A program made the translations under genes and the position numbers. From the NCBI RefSeq assembly GCF_056746865.1, contig NZ_CM163382.1: 64,000 nt of DNA, one strand, 5' to 3'. A model generated the notes under the pieces. That model had not been told where the DNA came from and ran no database searches. It was given only the letters and a program-made list of their open reading frames with translations. Each line of letters begins with the position of its first letter. Position 1 is the first letter of the stretch. This document shows positions 16,782-26,821 of this stretch, piece after piece.

Positions 16782-16902
16782 GTGCAGCCTGAAAAACAGT
16801 GCTGTGCCCTTGTAACTCATCATAATAATTTACGGCGCAGCCAAGATTTCCCTGGTGTTGGCGCAGTATTCGCGCACCCCGGTCTAGCCGGGGTCATTTT
16901 TT
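16782..16902 (+). ncRNA. arcZ: ArcZ small RNA (Hfq-dependent), 3' end convergent with and overlapping arcB stop
   Basis: Sequence GTGCAGCCTGAAAAACAGTGCTGTGCC…GGCGCAGTATTCGCGCACCCCGGTCTAGCCGGGGTCATTTTTT matches the ArcZ sequence as I recall it, including seed region and intrinsic terminator. Confidence 0.8.
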
Positions 16903-19230
16903 AGTGGCTTTTGCCACCCACGCTTTCAGTACTTCTACGTCGTGACGCCACTCTTCTTTCATCTCTTCAATCCATTCACCGACGTTATCTTCCCAGGCGG
17001 GAAGGTCAGGAGACTGAATTTGCTGACCCAGCTGTTGCAGATGGCGTAACCCCACTGACCCCGCCGCACCTTTAATTTTATGTCCTTCCTCAACAATGCC
17101 TTTTTTATCCTGCGCCGTCAGATTCGACTCCAGCACGCTGACATAGCCCGGCATCATCTTCTCAAACACCGCTAACCCGTCGGTGATCAGCTTCGGTCCT
17201 ACAAGTTCGAGATACTGTTCCAGCATGGGAATATCGAGCAATGCTTCTGATTTACTGTTCTCTTCTGTCGTCACCGTACTTTCCTCATCATCCTGGGTAT
17301 CCCAGAATTTCTTGATCATCGCGGTTAGCGCCGGAACAGAAAGCGGCTTACTCAGCACATCATCCATTCCAGCATTGAGGTACTCTTGCTTGTCTTTCAG
17401 CACGTTAGCGGTTAAGGCCACCAGCGGCGGTAAATCCTCGCGCGGATAACGCTTCGTCAGTTCACGAGAGATATCCAGCCCGGTCATATCTGGCAACTGA
17501 ATATCCAGCAACACCAGGTCGTATTCGCCCGGTTTAAACATTTCCAGCGCCGCCTTGCCGGTCATGGCGACATCAACGCTGTTACCTAATTTTTCCAGCA
17601 CAGAGCGTGCGACAATCACGTTCAGTTCAATATCTTCCACCAGCAGCACATTCAGCGCCGGTAAAGGCATATCGTCTTCATCAAACGCATCATCGACCTC
17701 TTCAGCCACCGACGGTGCGTGGATCGTCAACGTAAAGGTTGAACCTTTGCCCTGTTCGCTGGTAACCGTAATATCGCCGCCCATATTTTTCGCCAGACGA
17801 CGAGAAACGGCCAGACCAATACCGGTGCCGGTGGCAGGTTTACCGCCATGACTGTCTTTCACCTGGTAATACATGGCAAAGATTTTATCCAGCTCATCCT
17901 GCGGAATGCCGATACCAGAGTCTTCCACTTCAAAATGCAGCATATCGCCTTCATCGTAGCGCACGCGCACGGTAACCTGGCCTTGCTGGGTGAATTTGAC
18001 GGCGTTACTGATGAGATTCCACAGGATCTGCCGTAAACGCGTCCCGTCGGTAATGACCTGATGCGGTAATGGCAGCGTAGGCTCCAGATTAAAGCGCAAT
18101 CCTTTTTGTTGCGCCTGCAATGCGGAGAGATTTTCCAGATCGGCAAGGAAGCTGGTGAAATCAACCGGCTGATTATCAAGCTGGACCTTACGCCGTTCCA
18201 TCTTATCCATGTCGATAATATCGTTGAAGATATTCCCGAGCGTGACGGCCGAAACATGGATGGTTTTGAGATATTTTTCCTGCTCGGCGGTGAGTTCGGT
18301 ATCCAGCAGAATGCGGCTCAGGCCGACGATACCATTCAGCGGTGTACGCAATTCGTGACTGATGGTGGAAATAAACGTCGTTTTGTCGCGGCTGGCGCGT
18401 TCAAGCGCATCCTGATACCGCTTACGCTCGGTAATGTCGCGACCAAAACCCATCAAACCGTGACGTTTACCCACGCGGTCGTAGTACGGCACTTTACGGA
18501 TTTCAAAACAGGCTTTGCGCCCGTCCGGGTAATCCAGCCACTGTTCATAGGTCAGTGACACATTATGACGGAACACTTTTTCATCGGTTTCAATGACTTT
18601 CGCAGCGGCTTCCGGTGAGTAAACATCAGCAGGTTTCAGGTGAACCAGTTGTTTTTCGCTTTTTCCGGTCAGCAGCTCCATCGCGCGGTTACAGCCGGAA
18701 AACTCTTTATCTTCGTTACGATAAAAAACCAGGTCGGGTGAAGCGTCAAGGAAGGAACGTAAGAATGAGGATTGCTGCTCGAGCTGAATTTGTGTCTCTT
18801 CGCGCTCTTTGATTTCAATTTTCAGTTGGCCGAAGGTTTCCTGCAGTTCTGCTTCCGCTTTTTCACGAACGGCGATTTCCTGATTTAGCTGGGCAATATT
18901 ATCTTTTAACTGAACGTTGAGGCTCAAATCGCGCTCGCGCATCTCCTCCAGTTTTTGCACCAGTCGTGACAGACGTTGTCGTGACTCCTCCAGTTGCTCG
19001 ACGACCACCGATAGAAAGTAGACCGCCCACGGCGTAATCAGCAAACCAAAGAAGATAGAACGAATAACATCAATGCTTTCGACCTGACCATGCAGCACCA
19101 TGGTTACCGCCATTTGTACCACAATGGCAAGAACGACGAGGGCCAGCGCCAGCAACATTGAGAAGCGCACCAGACCTAACTTCATCATCAGGTCAACATA
19201 ATACTGCGCCAGCAGACGAATTTGCTTCAT
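16894..19230 (-). CDS. arcB: aerobic respiration control sensor histidine kinase
   Basis: 778-aa ORF: TM, PAS, HisKA/HATPase, receiver and HPt domains. Confidence 0.95.
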   Translation of the reverse strand: MKQIRLLAQYYVDLMMKLGLVRFSMLLALALVVLAIVVQMAVTMVLHGQVESIDVIRSIFFGLLITPWAVYFLSVVVEQLEESRQRLSRLVQKLEEMRERDLSLNVQLKDNIAQLNQEIAVREKAEAELQETFGQLKIEIKEREETQIQLEQQSSFLRSFLDASPDLVFYRNEDKEFSGCNRAMELLTGKSEKQLVHLKPADVYSPEAAAKVIETDEKVFRHNVSLTYEQWLDYPDGRKACFEIRKVPYYDRVGKRHGLMGFGRDITERKRYQDALERASRDKTTFISTISHELRTPLNGIVGLSRILLDTELTAEQEKYLKTIHVSAVTLGNIFNDIIDMDKMERRKVQLDNQPVDFTSFLADLENLSALQAQQKGLRFNLEPTLPLPHQVITDGTRLRQILWNLISNAVKFTQQGQVTVRVRYDEGDMLHFEVEDSGIGIPQDELDKIFAMYYQVKDSHGGKPATGTGIGLAVSRRLAKNMGGDITVTSEQGKGSTFTLTIHAPSVAEEVDDAFDEDDMPLPALNVLLVEDIELNVIVARSVLEKLGNSVDVAMTGKAALEMFKPGEYDLVLLDIQLPDMTGLDISRELTKRYPREDLPPLVALTANVLKDKQEYLNAGMDDVLSKPLSVPALTAMIKKFWDTQDDEESTVTTEENSKSEALLDIPMLEQYLELVGPKLITDGLAVFEKMMPGYVSVLESNLTAQDKKGIVEEGHKIKGAAGSVGLRHLQQLGQQIQSPDLPAWEDNVGEWIEEMKEEWRHDVEVLKAWVAKATKK

Positions 19231-19325: not shown

Positions 19326-20255
19326 CTACTCCGTTGGAGGTAGCCACGGACGTCCCAGCGCCGATCCCTGTACGCCATGTTCATTCAGATAGCGATCCAG
19401 CTCGACCATTCCCGTCCATCGATTTTCGCACCACAGAGGAGCAAGCAGCGTCGGGCGACGGGCGCTGGCGGAAATGCGGTGGTAGATCACTTCCGGTGGC
19501 GTATGGCGAATCATTTCTCCGGCAGTGAGCGTGTAATCTTCCAGTTCAATACCGTTCAAACGCCCCGCTTCCCAGGCTTTCGCCATAATGCTGCCTTTCA
19601 CAATATGCAGCGGATGCAGCTTTATGCCGTCCACGCCAGTTTCAACCACTCGCTCCAGCGTTTGCAAACATTCAGCCTGCCCTTCGCCAGGCAGGCCGAC
19701 AATTAAGTGGGAACACACCTTCAGCCCGCGCTGACGTGCCAGCTGGGTTGTACGCTGATAACAGGCAAAATCATGGCCGCGGTTGATGCGATGTAGCGTT
19801 TTGTCGTGGGCGGTTTGTAGCCCCAGCTCCAGCCACACTTCGTAGCCCTGGTCTTTATATTCACAAAGCAGATCCAGCACTGCATCCGGCACGCAGTCCG
19901 GGCGGGTACCAACACACAAACCGACAATATTGGCCTGGCTCACCGCCTGCTGATACATAGAACGCAGCACCTGAACTTCCGCAAAGGTGCTGGTATACGC
20001 CTGAAAGTAGGCCAGATAGCGTTTAGCGCGGTTAACTAAATTCGCCTGGTGCGCCAGTTGTTCGGCAATAGAACGATGTTGCTGCGCTTCATCGGCAAAC
20101 GAGGCAACATTACAGAATGTGCAGCCGCCACGCCCGATGGTACCGTCACGGTTAGGGCAGCTAAAACCGCCGTGCAGCGTCAGCTTATGCACCTTTTGCC
20201 CATAACGACGGGTGAGATCACCACCAAACATATTGACTAATTTCTGTAACTGCAT
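19326..20255 (-). CDS. yhcC: radical SAM protein YhcC
   Basis: Start at internal Met MQLQKLVNMFGG… (309 aa); CPNRDGTIGRGGCTFC cysteine motif. Confidence 0.8.
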   Translation of the reverse strand: MQLQKLVNMFGGDLTRRYGQKVHKLTLHGGFSCPNRDGTIGRGGCTFCNVASFADEAQQHRSIAEQLAHQANLVNRAKRYLAYFQAYTSTFAEVQVLRSMYQQAVSQANIVGLCVGTRPDCVPDAVLDLLCEYKDQGYEVWLELGLQTAHDKTLHRINRGHDFACYQRTTQLARQRGLKVCSHLIVGLPGEGQAECLQTLERVVETGVDGIKLHPLHIVKGSIMAKAWEAGRLNGIELEDYTLTAGEMIRHTPPEVIYHRISASARRPTLLAPLWCENRWTGMVELDRYLNEHGVQGSALGRPWLPPTE

Positions 20256-20929
20256 AATCTGATAGACCGCGCCTTGAAAAGAGGCCAAAGCCTGCCATTT
20301 TTAGCTCAATTCGGCGATGACCTGGATCAATCGTCCCGGCCTGCTTTTATCAACTGCATAATCAATCAAAATTACCGAAATTTCATGCATGATCACATAA
20401 ATCATTTTTGCTTATCTTGTGTCAGATTTTTTTATCTCCTTATAGATTTTAGGCAAAAACAGTAGCATAAAATGCCATTACCAATTAAGGCAGTATAAAA
20501 TGCTGGTTTTCTCGTCAGTTCAAGGCAGGATAAGGGTTAACACGCCTTTATGACAGTCAGGAATTGGCTGTTTCTCTACCGACGCCCCTTTTAGCCTTAA
20601 ATAGAAAATCCACTTTAATTTCAGCAAATTAATAAAGAATTTTGCGCTAAAGCACATTTCTGTACCAATAAGCTTGCCATTTGACCTGTATCATCTTTCC
20701 CGATAAGTTGGAAATCCGCTGGAAGCTTTCTGGATGAGCAGCCTGCTCATCATATTTATGCAGTAATTGAGATCCCCTCTTCACCGTATTAACCGATGCG
20801 AAAAGGACAACAAGGGGGCGAATGCGAGGCGCGCGTATGACACGCAAACCCCGTCGCCACGCTCTTTCTGTGCCCGTGCGCAGCGGTTCGGAAGTGGGGT
20901 TCCCGCAGAGCCTGGGGGAGGTTCACGAT

Positions 20930-23900
20930 ATGTTGTACGATAAATCCCTTGAGAGGGATAACTGTGGTTTCGGCCTGATCGCCCATATAGAAGGCGAACC
21001 TAGCCACAAGGTAGTGCGTACTGCAATACACGCACTGGCCCGCATGCAGCACCGTGGCGCGATTCTCGCCGATGGTAAAACCGGTGACGGTTGCGGCTTG
21101 CTGTTACAAAAACCGGATCGCTTTTTTCGCATCGTTGCGCAGGAGCGCGGTTGGCGTTTAGCGAAAAACTACGCCGTCGGGATGCTCTTCCTGAATAAAG
21201 ATCCTGAACTCGCCGCTGCCGCACGCCGCATCGTTGAAGAAGAGCTGCAACGCGAAACCTTATCGATTGTGGGCTGGCGTGATGTCCCCACCAACGAAGG
21301 CGTGCTGGGTGAAATCGCCCTCTCCTCTCTGCCACGCATTGAGCAAATTTTTGTGAACGCCCCGGCAGGCTGGCGTCCGCGCGATATGGAGCGCCGTCTG
21401 TTTATCGCCCGCCGCCGCATTGAAAAGCGTCTCGAAGCCGACAAAGACTTCTACGTCTGTAGCCTGTCGAATCTGGTGAACATCTATAAAGGTCTGTGTA
21501 TGCCGGCGGATCTGCCGCGCTTTTATCTGGATCTTGCGGACCTGCGTCTGGAATCGGCCATTTGCCTGTTCCACCAGCGCTTCTCCACTAACACCGTACC
21601 GCGCTGGCCGCTGGCGCAGCCGTTCCGCTACCTGGCGCATAACGGTGAAATCAACACCATCACCGGTAACCGCCAATGGGCGCGTGCGCGTACCTATAAA
21701 TTCCAGACGCCGCTGATCCCTGACCTGCACGACGCCGCGCCGTTCGTCAACGAAACCGGTTCTGACTCCAGTTCCATGGATAACATGCTGGAACTGCTGC
21801 TGGCAGGCGGGATGGATATCATCCGCGCCATGCGTCTGTTAGTACCACCCGCCTGGCAGAACAACCCGGATATGGACCCGGAACTGCGTGCCTTCTTTGA
21901 CTTTAACTCCATGCATATGGAGCCGTGGGATGGCCCGGCGGGCATCGTGATGTCTGACGGTCGTTTTGCCGCCTGTAACCTCGACCGTAACGGTCTGCGT
22001 CCGGCGCGCTACGTCATCACCAAAGATAAGCTCATCACCTGCGCCTCTGAAGTCGGTATCTGGGATTACCAGCCTGACGAAGTGGTCGAAAAAGGCCGCG
22101 TCGGGCCAGGCGAACTGATGGTTATCGACACCCGCAGTGGGCGTATTCTGCACTCGGCAGAAACCGATGACGATCTGAAAAGCCGCCACCCTTATAAAGA
22201 GTGGATGGAGAAAAACGTCCGCCGTCTGGTACCGTTTGAAGATCTGCCCGATGAAGAAGTGGGTAGCCGCGAACTGGACGACGACACGCTTGCCAGCTAT
22301 CAGAAACAGTTTAACTACAGCGCGGAAGAGCTGGACTCCGTAATTCGCGTACTGGGCGAAAACGGTCAGGAAGCGGTCGGTTCGATGGGTGACGACACCC
22401 CATTCGCCGTGCTCTCCAGTCAGCCGCGCATTATTTACGACTACTTCCGCCAGCAGTTTGCCCAGGTGACTAACCCGCCAATCGACCCGCTGCGTGAAGC
22501 GCATGTTATGTCGCTCGCCACCAGTATCGGTCGTGAAATGAACGTCTTTTGCGAAGCAGAGGGCCAGGCGCACCGTTTAAGCTTTAAATCGCCGATTCTG
22601 CTCTACTCCGATTTCAAACAGCTCACGACGATGAAAGAGGAGCACTACCGCGCAGATACACTGGATATCACCTTTGACGTCACTAAAACCACGCTCGAAG
22701 CGACGGTCAAAGAGCTGTGCGACAAAGCCGAAAAAATGGTACGTAGCGGCACTGTGCTGCTGGTGCTCTCCGACCGGAATATCGCTAAAGATCGCCTGCC
22801 GGTTCCGGCTCCGATGGCGGTTGGCGCGATCCAGACCCGTCTGGTCGATCAAAGCTTGCGTTGCGATGCCAACATCATCGTCGAAACCGCCAGCGCCCGC
22901 GATCCGCACCATTTCGCCGTGTTGCTGGGCTTCGGTGCGACGGCTATTTATCCGTACCTTGCCTATGAAACGCTGGGCCGCCTGGTAGACACCCACGCGA
23001 TTGCCAAAGATTATCGTACCGTGATGCTCAACTACCGTAACGGCATCAACAAAGGCTTGTACAAAATCATGTCCAAAATGGGCATCTCCACCATCGCCTC
23101 TTACCGCTGCTCGAAACTGTTTGAAGCGGTCGGTCTGCACGATGATGTCGTAGGCCTGTGCTTCCAGGGCGCTGTTAGCCGCATTGGTGGGGCAAGCTTT
23201 GAAGACTTCCAGCAGGATCTGCTGAACCTGTCGAAACGTGCCTGGCTGGCGCGTAAGCCCATCAGCCAGGGCGGCCTGCTGAAATACGTGCACGGTGGCG
23301 AATACCACGCCTACAACCCGGACGTGGTGCGCACACTGCAACAGGCGGTACAAAGCGGCGAGTACAGCGACTATCAGGAATACGCGAAGCTGGTTAATGA
23401 GCGTCCGGCAACCACGCTGCGCGATCTGCTGGCAATTACGCCGGGTGAAAACGCGGTCAACATTGCTGATGTTGAACCGGCAAGCGAACTGTTTAAACGC
23501 TTCGATACCGCTGCGATGTCTATCGGCGCGTTAAGCCCGGAAGCCCACGAGGCGCTGGCTGAAGCGATGAACAGCATCGGCGGCAACTCTAACTCCGGTG
23601 AAGGCGGCGAAGATCCGGCACGCTACGGCACCAACAAAGTGTCGCGCATCAAGCAGGTGGCTTCCGGTCGCTTTGGGGTTACTCCGGCGTATCTGGTCAA
23701 TGCCGACGTCATTCAGATTAAAGTCGCCCAGGGCGCGAAGCCGGGCGAAGGCGGTCAGTTACCGGGCGATAAAGTCACGCCTTACATCGCCAAACTGCGC
23801 TATTCGGTGCCCGGAGTGACGCTGATCTCCCCGCCGCCGCACCATGATATCTACTCTATCGAGGACTTAGCGCAGCTTATTTTCGACCTCAAGCAGGTTA

Positions 23901-25390
23901 ACCCGAAAGCGATGATCTCCGTGAAGCTGGTTTCCGAACCGGGAGTAGGCACCATCGCGACTGGCGTGGCGAAAGCTTATGCCGATTTAATCACCATCGC
24001 AGGCTATGATGGCGGCACCGGCGCAAGTCCGCTTTCATCGGTGAAATACGCAGGCTGTCCGTGGGAACTCGGCCTGGTGGAAACCCAACAGGCGCTGGTT
24101 GCCAACGGTTTACGTCATAAAATTCGTTTGCAGGTTGATGGCGGCCTGAAAACGGGCGTTGATATCATCAAAGCGGCGATTCTCGGCGCAGAAAGCTTCG
24201 GCTTCGGCACTGGCCCAATGGTCGCGCTCGGTTGTAAATATCTGCGAATTTGCCACCTGAACAACTGCGCCACGGGTGTAGCAACTCAGGATGACAAACT
24301 GCGTAAGAATCACTATCACGGCCTGCCGTTCAAAGTGACGAATTACTTTGAGTTTATCGCCCGTGAAACCCGCGAGCTGATGGCACAGCTGGGGGTAACG
24401 CGGCTGGTGGATCTGATTGGTCGCACCGACCTGCTGAAAGAGCTGGACGGTTTCACCGCCAAACAGCAGAAACTGGCGCTGTCGAAACTGCTGGAGACCG
24501 CCGAGCCGCATCCCGGTAAGGCGCTCTACTGCACCGAAAACAACCCGCCGTTTGATAACGGCCTGCTGAACGCGCAGTTGCTGCAACAGGCGAAACCGTT
24601 TGTCGATGAGCGCCAGAGCAAAACCTTCTGGTTCGATATTCGCAACACCGACCGTTCTGTCGGCGCGTCGCTTTCAGGCTATATCGCCCAGACGCACGGC
24701 GATCAGGGTCTGGCAGCCGATCCGATCAAAGCGTACTTCAACGGCACCGCAGGCCAGAGCTTCGGTGTGTGGAACGCGGGCGGCGTGGAACTGTACCTGA
24801 CCGGTGATGCCAACGACTATGTCGGTAAAGGCATGGCGGGCGGCTTAATCGCCATTCGTCCTCCGGTTGGTTCAGCCTTCCGCAGCCACGAAGCAAGCAT
24901 TATCGGCAACACCTGCCTGTATGGCGCGACCGGTGGTCGTCTGTATGCCGCAGGCCGCGCGGGTGAACGTTTCGGCGTGCGTAACTCCGGTGCTATCACC
25001 GTGGTAGAAGGCATTGGCGACAACGGCTGTGAATATATGACGGGCGGTATTGTCTGTATTCTGGGTAAAACCGGCGTTAACTTCGGCGCTGGCATGACTG
25101 GCGGCTTCGCTTACGTTCTCGATGAAAGCGGCGATTTCCGCAAACGCGTTAACCCGGAACTGGTCGAGGTCTTAAGCGTTGACGATTTGGCGATCCATGA
25201 AGAGCATCTGCGTGGACTTATCACCGAGCATGTTCAGTATACTGGCTCTCAGCGCGGTGAAGAGATTCTGGCGAACTGGTCAACCTTCGCCACTAAATTT
25301 GCGCTGGTTAAACCGAAGTCCAGTGATGTAAAAGCACTGCTGGGTCACCGTAGTCGTAGCGCAGCAGAGTTGCGCGTGCAGGCGCAGTAA
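20930..25390 (+). CDS. gltB: glutamate synthase large subunit
   Basis: Glutamine amidotransferase, FMN and GXGXG domains; start set at [15 protein letters not shown] (1486 aa), with in-frame upstream ATGs at 20822 and 20837. Confidence 0.9.

Positions 25391-26821
<1,431 letters not shown>

Follow-up and report, generated by a model that had tools for sequence, protein, structure and literature searches.

The DNA analyzed here (the window) is a stretch of 64,000 nucleotides from contig NZ_CM163382.1 of assembly GCF_056746865.1, corresponding to the Escherichia coli arcB–yhcC–gltBD region, with a yhcC-gltB intergenic region of 674 bp (20256-20929). The order arcB-yhcC-gltB-gltD is the same in E. 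coli K-12 MG1655, to which the window is identical over 20695-20969, a span that takes in the leader, the three ATGs, and the first codons; within the intergenic region about 20 substitutions separate the two, in the AT-rich portion far from the promoter. The transcription of glutamate synthase, a major enzyme of nitrogen assimilation, has received thorough study (Lrp, IHF, Crp, and ArgR). The features that define the gene and its candidate starts are listed below.

20768-20770, plus strand: in-frame TGA, the upstream bound of the long open reading frame (sequence and ORF list)
20822-20824, plus strand: first upstream ATG, which would give 1,522 aa; in the P5/P6 internal loop of the leader RNA, judged untranslated
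20837-20839, plus strand: second upstream ATG, which would give 1,517 aa; nt 1-3 of the 5-nt P7 apical loop, judged untranslated
20930-25390, plus strand: gltB coding sequence, 1,486 codons plus stop, glutamate synthase large subunit (RefSeq starts, tblastn, and Pfam)
20930-20962, plus strand: propeptide of 11 codons, removal of which would expose the catalytic Cys
20963-20965, plus strand: TGT, Cys12 of the precursor and Cys1 of the mature protein, N-terminal nucleophile of the glutaminase domain (Pfam and PDB alignment)
25403-26821, plus strand: gltD, small subunit, a 472-aa ORF beginning 12 nt past the gltB stop

The naming of the gene as gltB in the preliminary description is borne out by four Pfam domains in the expected order (GATase_2, Glu_syn_central, Glu_synthase, and GXGXG; E-values 1e-76 to 5e-178), the first of which begins, at position 1 of its profile, exactly on the Cys of DNCGFG. 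The K-12 coding sequence at the same offset as the 472-aa ORF is annotated as gltD. Cys1 is a marker of the glutaminase site (PMC8097209), and the earlier statement that the mature enzyme starts at this Cys agrees with the solved chains 1ea0_A, 2vdc_A, and 1llw_A, which begin at a Cys1 that aligns to Cys12 of the GltB precursor; PDB sequences of precursor length align from the LY motif onward. Judging by these homologous structures and by the literature, the propeptide would likewise be removed from E. coli GltB.

Choice among three in-frame ATGs

As first described, ATGs in a single frame lie at 20822, 20837, and 20930 (offsets of 15 and 108; MG1655 positions 3354617, 3354632, and 3354725), and the longest listed ORF, 20822 to 25390, encodes 1,522 aa. 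The pattern is close to chance: among 5,000 dinucleotide-preserving shuffles of 20771-20929, 28% contain at least one in-frame ATG with the frame open through to 20930, and 5.4% contain at least two. The start had been called ambiguous from sequence alone, which is fair for one sequence, given three candidates and the presence of all three forms in public databases, but the ambiguity is gone once relatives are compared (about 150 related genomes overall). Nor does the choice depend on experiment, as had been proposed, since the relatives, Shine-Dalgarno (SD) pairing and accessibility, and a natural frameshift variant all favor 20930. It is in fact already settled in RefSeq and in the current K-12 annotation, both of which use ATG 20930: the RefSeq start maps there in four E. 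coli genomes, one of them K-12 (b3212, NP_417679.2, 1,486 aa). We hold it to be very likely that translation starts at 20930 and that 20822 and 20837 are non-starts inside an untranslated leader of about 216 nt that is conserved as RNA.

Counted in residues of the MLYDK form, tblastn homology in 80 genomes sets in at residue 1-2 in 75 loci and at residue 9 in 5, and in none of them does it reach upstream of the MLYDK start. Most of the 80 have only one start in common, an ATG that lies 10-14 codons ahead of the Cys and recurs across the gamma-proteobacteria; an in-frame stop lies 7 codons upstream of this ATG in five close enterics, and a stop at this distance is found in 22 of 75 distinct enterobacterial leaders. 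An in-frame upstream ATG before the stop is absent from 49 of these 75. The counterpart of ATG 20822 is present in 43 leaders and spread over frames 0, 1, and 2 (13, 17, and 13 leaders), as expected of noncoding sequence, and in some genera the position reads ACA or ACG. The apical hairpin that bears ATG 20837 differs in sequence or is missing in other genera, and frame-breaking indels adjoin the start between species (GGGGGAGGTTCACGAT in E. coli vs. GGGGAGGTTCACTGAT elsewhere). Position and frame of the start codon are conserved among orthologues at 20930 and at neither of the other ATGs. In one E. coli isolate, 23S01245-7, the loss of 1 nt near 20890 shifts both upstream ATGs into another frame, and its gltB is still called intact.

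The deletion in isolate 23S01245-7 could be a sequencing error.

A genuine start was taken to have an SD at 5-9 nt and an accessible initiation region, as 20930 does. The suggested analysis of SD spacing, once run, gave this ATG both the best SD match and the lowest unfolding cost of the three: its anti-SD duplex is worth -12.0 kcal/mol at a spacing of 6 nt, with 11.6 kcal/mol to open the site, compared with -10.5 kcal/mol, 2 nt, and 17-20 kcal/mol for 20822 and -5.9 kcal/mol, 6 nt, and 17-18 kcal/mol for 20837. The element concerned is the following.

20914-20921, plus strand: Shine-Dalgarno sequence GGGGGAGG, serving ATG 20930, 8 nt upstream

Codon usage was dropped as a discriminator, the true N-terminal codons scoring as low as the upstream extension (log2-odds per codon of 0.15 for the first 36 true codons and 0.09 for the extension, vs. 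0.77 +/- 0.17 for the rest of gltB). A search of the literature and data sets on initiation-inhibitor ribosome profiling and precursor N-terminomics found no direct mapping of the gltB start.

Initiation might instead be mostly at 20930 with occasional use of an upstream ATG, in E. coli only and with neutral effect, since cutting at the Cys would remove the presequence and yield one mature enzyme from any of the starts. Almost all E. coli keep the upstream frame open (leader at least 99% identical in 5,411 of 5,416 genomes), and AUG 20837 is predicted to sit unpaired in a hairpin loop. This conservation within E. coli is, however, explained equally well by RNA structure, nothing positive points to such events, and the structure and SD arguments would make them rare; we regard them as improbable. 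Regular translation from 20837, as in the original K-12 annotation, would give a 1,517-residue precursor with a 42-residue presequence. Its frame is open, a weak GAGG lies 7 nt upstream, its AUG shares the predicted loop position, and the 1,517-aa form stands on at least 1,000 contigs, including an older K-12 MG1655 entry. Yet no relative has anything that matches the 31 added residues, other genera lack the apical hairpin or carry a different one in its place, and in many leaders in-frame stops follow the position; the weak anti-SD duplex, the cost of opening the site, the loss of frame in isolate 23S01245-7, and the abandonment of this start by RefSeq and the current K-12 annotation add to a case that makes it very improbable. 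Translation from the first ATG, 20822, is hardly credible: it opens the longest ORF, follows a purine-rich AAGGGGG with a -10.5 kcal/mol anti-SD duplex, and is represented by the 1,522-aa form on 73 contigs, but the SD-like run ends 2 nt before the ATG, which is too close, and doubles as the 5' strand of helix P5, the site is costly to unfold, and the homologous ATG is randomly spread over three frames and absent in several genera.

The older deposited forms (1,517 aa from MTRKPRR and 1,522 aa from MRGARM) belong to the same gene and frame and are the first two candidates of the preliminary description; their 31 or 36 additional N-terminal residues are unconserved in relatives and overlap the structured leader. 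The start-codon question is an ordinary one, already known, with little at stake, except that the over-extended N terminus persists in databases, and constructs or fusions designed from such entries would carry structured leader as coding sequence. In the scheme that we favor, ATG 20930 would be read with its strong SD to give a 1,486-residue precursor, loss of the first 11 residues would leave Cys12 as the N-terminal nucleophile, and the ATGs at 20822 and 20837 would be in frame in E. coli by happenstance, within the untranslated leader.

Promoter and extent of the leader

The transcribed leader and the elements that position it are as follows.

20638-20659, no strand assigned: Crp binding site AATTTTGCGCTAAAGCACATTT, the anchor for the published numbering (primer gltcrp1 and text of PMC1784095)
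20681-20709, plus strand: probable sigma-70 promoter, -35 TTGACC (20681-20686), 17-bp spacer, and -10 TAAGTT (20704-20709)
20714-20929, plus strand: gltBDF transcribed 5' leader, about 216 nt, its start placed to within about 2 nt

The leader had been described as AT-rich and about 550 bp long. An AT-rich intergenic part does exist (27-47% GC, about 20350-20700), but it is mostly promoter DNA, upstream regulatory sequence with Crp and Lrp sites, and the transcribed leader comes to about 216 nt, with 61-64% GC in its 3' half. From the numbering in PMC1784095 we infer a transcription start near 20714. The Crp site mutated by primer gltcrp1 is numbered -76 to -55 in that paper and maps to 20638-20659, where the right flank of the primer alone was mapped by machine (20657-20678) and the Crp 22-mer was placed by eye. 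Lrp-consensus sites at 20491-20505 and 20463-20477 fit the published -215 and -246, and primer gltP2, at 20701-20720, marks the end of the fragment with promoter activity. The -35 hexamer lies 21 bp past the edge of the Crp site, as PMC1784095 states; we consider the assignment of the hexamers probable. The promoter was not among the matches of a consensus scan. An alternative reading of the TTATGCAGT block (20756-20764) as a -10 and start region, with a leader of about 170 nt, was rejected on the same primer and site mapping. With +1 near 20714, the 5' hairpin HP1 and the invariant TTATGCAGT block both lie within the RNA. The Cappable-seq and SMRT-Cappable-seq transcription-start tables yielded nothing for gltB.

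Architecture and conservation of the leader RNA

Judged from sequence comparison, the leader is conserved across Enterobacterales as an RNA and not as a protein. Its parts, in 5' to 3' order, are a hairpin (HP1), a linker that does not vary, a branched domain (about 140 nt), and a small hairpin at the SD.

20733-20751, plus strand: HP1, a 7-bp hairpin (GAUGAGC-AGCCU-GCUCAUC), +20 to +38 of the leader
20752-20767, plus strand: linker with UUAUGCAGU, in every leader collected and a conserved block in the protein-anchored set
20768-20907, plus strand: core structured domain, closing helix P1 (about 20771-20780 with 20892-20905) and the long imperfect arm P3-P7
20812-20866, plus strand: apex of the long arm, P5 (AAGGGGGCGA with UCGCC..CUCUU), P6 (CGAGG/CCCCG), and P7 (GCGU/ACGC), which holds both upstream ATGs
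20908-20924, plus strand: predicted SD hairpin (GAGCCU-GGGGG-AGGUUC), with the SD partly in the loop and partly in the 3' arm

HP1 is 92.5% paired over 42 distinct variants, with UA/CG, AU/GC, and CG/UA exchanges, a level of pairing reached by none of 2,000 shuffles and falling to 21-42% in slid registers. A scan flagged it as terminator-like, and its tail AUAUUUAU passes the threshold, but the tail is interrupted by A and conserved sequence runs on past it. Predictions leave the linker single-stranded or, alternately, pair it with the start-codon region; since that partner is likewise invariant, covariation is uninformative on this pairing. Because UUAUGCAGU doubled as the search anchor for the larger leader set, its invariance there is partly by construction. 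The 17-mer around the SD is invariant in Enterobacterales except for one extra G in E. coli, partly by construction in the metagenomic leaders, which were fished with this 17-mer as bait. The SD hairpin is predicted by the consensus fold and by almost all folds of single sequences, and its invariance makes covariation uninformative here too.

The core domain is matched by covariance model R1 at 93 bits (E 2e-22), as are 71 other leaders; the matches are limited to Enterobacterales. Tested with a structure taken from one member and an alignment (A4) fitted to that structure, 77% of the cells of the domain are paired, vs. 35-55% when slid, and compensatory changes on both sides occur in 31 of its 50 pairs, a count that none of 500 shuffles reaches. 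The signal is weaker on an unfitted MAFFT alignment, with 23 compensatory pairs vs. 19.4 expected and 30 of 500 shuffles reaching 23. From plain MAFFT alignments RNAalifold derived a poor consensus (covariation term -0.14), and the single-member structure, covariance model, and realignment took its place. At the apex the compensatory variants include GGGCGG/CCCGCC (Yersinia), GAGUGG/CCGCUC (Acerihabitans), GCAUAC/GUAUGC (Mangrovibacter), and GGUGC/GCACC (Klebsiella-like), and 11 divergent sequences folded separately arrive at one shared architecture. E. coli has lost a hairpin, P2, that other genera possess. The excess of G-U pairs over A-C mismatches (421 vs. 224) favors the sense strand, and with all model matches on the gltB strand an antisense origin of the structure is unlikely. 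Two upstream ORFs, an AUG-CAG-UAA mini-ORF and a 14-codon ORF from 20796, were rejected, lacking an SD or conservation.

Conservation of the leader could also reflect constraint on the DNA, such as regulator or RNA polymerase sites downstream of the transcription start, or recent ancestry, and not RNA structure. The E. coli leader folds with no excess stability over shuffled sequence (z = 0.05), several of its segments are invariant and hence uninformative on pairing, covariation is modest on the unfitted alignment, and related sequences may beat column shuffles without any structure. Against this, compensatory exchanges between genera preserve the pairing of HP1 and P5-P7 even as the loops change in sequence and length, the pairing disappears when the register is slid, the 11 divergent folds converge, and the shuffles fall short of the observed two-sided changes. 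We therefore judge this explanation unlikely and retain that of a conserved RNA.

Possible function and comparison with known systems

Among the 4,227 families of Rfam 15, none matches within 20250-21050 even at E <= 10 (best score, 20.7 bits vs. a gathering score of 47), and ArcZ is the only gathering-level match in the whole window. A literature search found no paper on a folded gltB leader. It is possible, and we put it forward tentatively, that the gltBDF leader (20714-20929) is an undescribed cis-regulatory RNA of Enterobacterales through which a metabolite, a protein, or small RNAs would tune expression posttranscriptionally, the E. coli version being reduced, without P2. Our best guess as to its role is that the SD hairpin and linker may govern how readily ribosomes reach the mRNA or how stable it is.

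RyhB and OmrA/B are reported to affect GltB; such effects are compatible with a cis-regulatory leader, though not tied to it. An 8-nt perfect complement joins leader CUGGAAGC with RyhB GCUUCCAG, against a chance expectation of about 0.26 matches of this kind, and a duplexfold comparison of whole molecules was uninformative, at -54.5 vs. a shuffled mean of -58.4; pairing of RyhB with the leader is only a lead. The leader is the more useful outcome of this analysis, if a modest one: a folded leader around the ribosome-binding site suggests a layer of posttranscriptional control that seems to have gone unexamined.

The predicted maturation of GltB is that of the glutamate synthases of Azospirillum brasilense and Bacillus subtilis and the Fd-GltS of Synechocystis, class II amidotransferases with a cleaved propeptide. 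In N-terminal-nucleophile amidotransferases the catalytic Cys must become residue 1 and is preceded by a short presequence containing an (L/G)LY motif. The length of this presequence differs by lineage, with 10-14 codons in most of the gamma-proteobacteria sampled and more in some; B. subtilis PurF has an 11-residue propeptide. As for the leader, the cyanobacterial glutamine riboswitch (glnA RNA) is likewise the conserved folded leader of a nitrogen-assimilation gene, with its ribosome-binding site in a hairpin. The gltB leader, which matches no Rfam family and belongs to Enterobacterales only, resembles the glnA RNA in kind and not by membership.

Gene identity and translation start of gltB

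The region belongs to an E. coli chromosome, with 100% identity to CFSAN061770 over 851 bp and no difference from K-12 MG1655 across 20695-20969, and the gene order is arcB (-), yhcC (-), gltB (+), gltD (+). Two features lie at its arcB end:

16782-16889, + strand: ArcZ small RNA gene (Rfam RF00081, 120 bits), adjoining arcB
16894-19230, - strand: arcB, neighbor of ArcZ

The preliminary description named the gene correctly: GltB matches all four Pfam domains that make up a glutamate synthase large subunit, of which GATase_2 starts exactly at the Cys of DNCGFG. Its statement that the mature enzyme begins at this Cys after propeptide removal is probably also right, judging by aligned PDB chains: for the Azospirillum and Synechocystis enzymes, mature chains have Cys1, aligned to this Cys, as their first residue, and alignment to precursor-length entries runs from the LY of MLYDK. 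The mature E. coli subunit was reportedly N-terminally sequenced from this Cys in a 1987 sequencing paper. Cys1 marks the glutaminase site (PMC8097209).

The three candidate ATGs at 20822 (1522 aa), 20837 (1517 aa), and 20930 (1486 aa, beginning MLYDK) do share one frame, which opens after an in-frame TGA at 20768-70. When the 159 nt from this TGA to ATG 20930 are shuffled with dinucleotides preserved, 28% of the shuffles contain at least one in-frame open ATG and 5.4% at least two; the upstream in-frame ATG pattern is no more than chance.

We consider it very probable that translation starts at ATG 20930. In a protein-anchored scan of 80 loci (one genome per species, Citrobacter to Acinetobacter), homology starts at residue 1-2 of the MLYDK form in 75 and at residue 9 in the other 5, with none upstream of that form in any locus. 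An ATG 10-14 codons 5' of the Cys recurs throughout this set, and five close enterics carry an in-frame stop just 7 codons upstream of it. Further enterobacterial leaders from a metagenome DNA-pattern scan brought the set to 75 distinct sequences. Read upstream from the start, 49 of them meet a stop before any in-frame ATG, and 22 have a stop at a distance of 7 codons. In 43 leaders a recognizable motif holds the counterpart of ATG 20822, which is spread over frames 0, 1, and 2 (13, 17, and 13). Beside the start, E. coli has GGGGGAGGTTCACGAT and other leaders have GGGGAGGTTCACTGAT, a difference amounting to a pair of frame-breaking indels within an otherwise invariant stretch; conservation here is at the nucleotide rather than the protein level.

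Shine-Dalgarno (SD) analysis, one of the checks proposed earlier, was run on all three ATGs and favors 20930, which has the strongest anti-SD pairing (-12.0 kcal/mol, 6-nt spacing) and the lowest opening cost (11.6 kcal/mol). The purine run of ATG 20822 stands just 2 nt from it, pairing at ATG 20837 is weak (-5.9 kcal/mol), and both cost 17-20 kcal/mol to open. RefSeq places the start at the 20930 equivalent in 4/4 E. coli genomes inspected, including K-12 (NP_417679.2). An environmental E. coli isolate (NZ_OZ197100.1) has a 1-nt leader deletion (~20890 equivalent) that leaves neither upstream ATG in frame, and its gltB is still annotated intact at 1486 aa; this is weak evidence because sequencing error is possible. 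Codon usage does not discriminate, scoring 0.09 for the extension and 0.15 for the true first 36 codons, versus 0.77 +/- 0.17 deeper in gltB. The preliminary description is thus upheld on gene and processing, and the ambiguity it claimed is outdated, since relatives, SD pairing, opening cost, and RefSeq all give 20930. That ambiguity mirrors real annotation history, as all three forms have been deposited publicly: at least 1000 contigs carry the 1486-aa form, at least 1000 the 1517-aa form, and 73 the 1522-aa form. The start-codon question is ordinary and its answer already known.

Promoter DNA and extent of the leader

The yhcC-gltB intergenic region spans 674 bp, and its AT-rich part (27-47% GC) is regulatory DNA. 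The Crp site, numbered -76 to -55 (PMC1784095), was placed at 20638-20659 via a mutagenic primer of that study, which sets +1 near 20714 and the leader at ~216 nt. A TTGACC hexamer lies 21 bp past the Crp site, the distance stated in PMC1784095; Lrp-consensus matches found by eye at 20491-20505 and 20463-20477 agree with its -215 and -246, and the 3' primer of its active promoter fragment ends at 20720. The AT-rich leader of ~550 bp described earlier is therefore regulatory DNA for its AT-rich stretch, and the 3' half of the transcribed leader has 61-64% GC. Leader and start region (20700-20960) show at least 99% identity in 5411/5416 complete E. coli genomes, versus only 95-99% in most for the wider 851-bp region (20250-21100), which places most of the variation in the AT-rich promoter-distal DNA.

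Predicted structure of the leader

20733-20751 (+20 to +38): HP1, a covarying 7-bp hairpin
20768-20907: core domain, with closing helix P1, small hairpin P2 (not in E. coli), and long imperfect arm P3-P7
20908-20924: invariant hairpin GAGCCU-GGGG(G)-AGGUUC, with the SD inside

HP1 is 92.5% paired over 42 distinct variants, with UA/CG, AU/GC, and CG/UA exchanges, a level reached by 0/2000 shuffles and compared with 21-42% in slid registers. Its 3' neighbor is an invariant CAUAUUUAUGCAGUAA, and a consensus scan calls it terminator-like. Candidate roles for HP1 are those of an attenuator, of an element in processing or stability, or of a site for protein binding. The invariant linker 3' of HP1 carries UUAUGCAGU(AA). 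A near-invariant two-codon start-stop mini-ORF, AUG-CAG-UAA, lies at 20758-20766 without an SD; its stop is gone in ~6/75 leaders.

Folded independently to minimum energy, 11 divergent leaders (Escherichia, Citrobacter, Enterobacter, a Klebsiella-like genome, Mangrovibacter, Yersinia, Pantoea, Acerihabitans, and three metagenomic lineages) share one core architecture. On a MAFFT alignment not fitted to it, the Citrobacter-derived structure has 74.7% pairing, versus 39-53% when slid. A covariance model of the core (R1) gave 72 matches (36-148 bits), and in the realignment made with it (A4), fitted to this single-member structure, pairing is 77% versus 35-55% slid, with both-side changes in 31/50 pairs, a number that 0/500 shuffles reach. 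G-U pairs outnumber A-C mismatches (421 vs. 224) and every R1 match has the orientation of the mRNA, which makes the sense strand the likely carrier of the structure. The E. coli leader fold is no more stable than shuffled sequence (z = 0.05). The P2 hairpin (GCAAGU...ACUUGU, ~20 nt) is deleted in E. coli (20780-20795) and kept by every other enterobacterial leader sampled; the SD 17-mer served as bait for the metagenomic leaders, which accounts in part for the invariance of its hairpin in that set. ATG 20822 is predicted to lie in an internal loop between P5 and P6, and ATG 20837 to occupy positions 1-3 of the 5-nt P7 apical loop. Right after the start codon, gltB codons 6-10 (20945-20959) contain a perfect 6-bp inverted repeat, AUCCCU UGAG AGGGAU, which in E. 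coli folds pairs with itself or with the P1 5' strand.

Relation to known leaders and small RNAs

The leader matches no Rfam family, ArcZ being the sole Rfam match over the whole window, and literature searches returned nothing on a structured gltB leader, though transcriptional control is covered in detail. Two studies connect gltB with small RNAs, neither mapping a leader site: RyhB ribosome profiling lists it among newly repressed genes (PMC4666370), and a preprint from 2026 reports that OmrA/B overexpression reduces GltB and GltD levels, possibly indirectly. An invariant leader octamer, CUGGAAGC (20719-20726), is the perfect complement of GCUUCCAG in RyhB, with ~0.26 such matches expected by chance. 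In a whole-molecule duplex calculation with RyhB, the energy (-54.5) did not stand out from shuffles (mean -58.4). The conserved, folded leader holding the two decoy ATGs offers a modest lead to a putative function.
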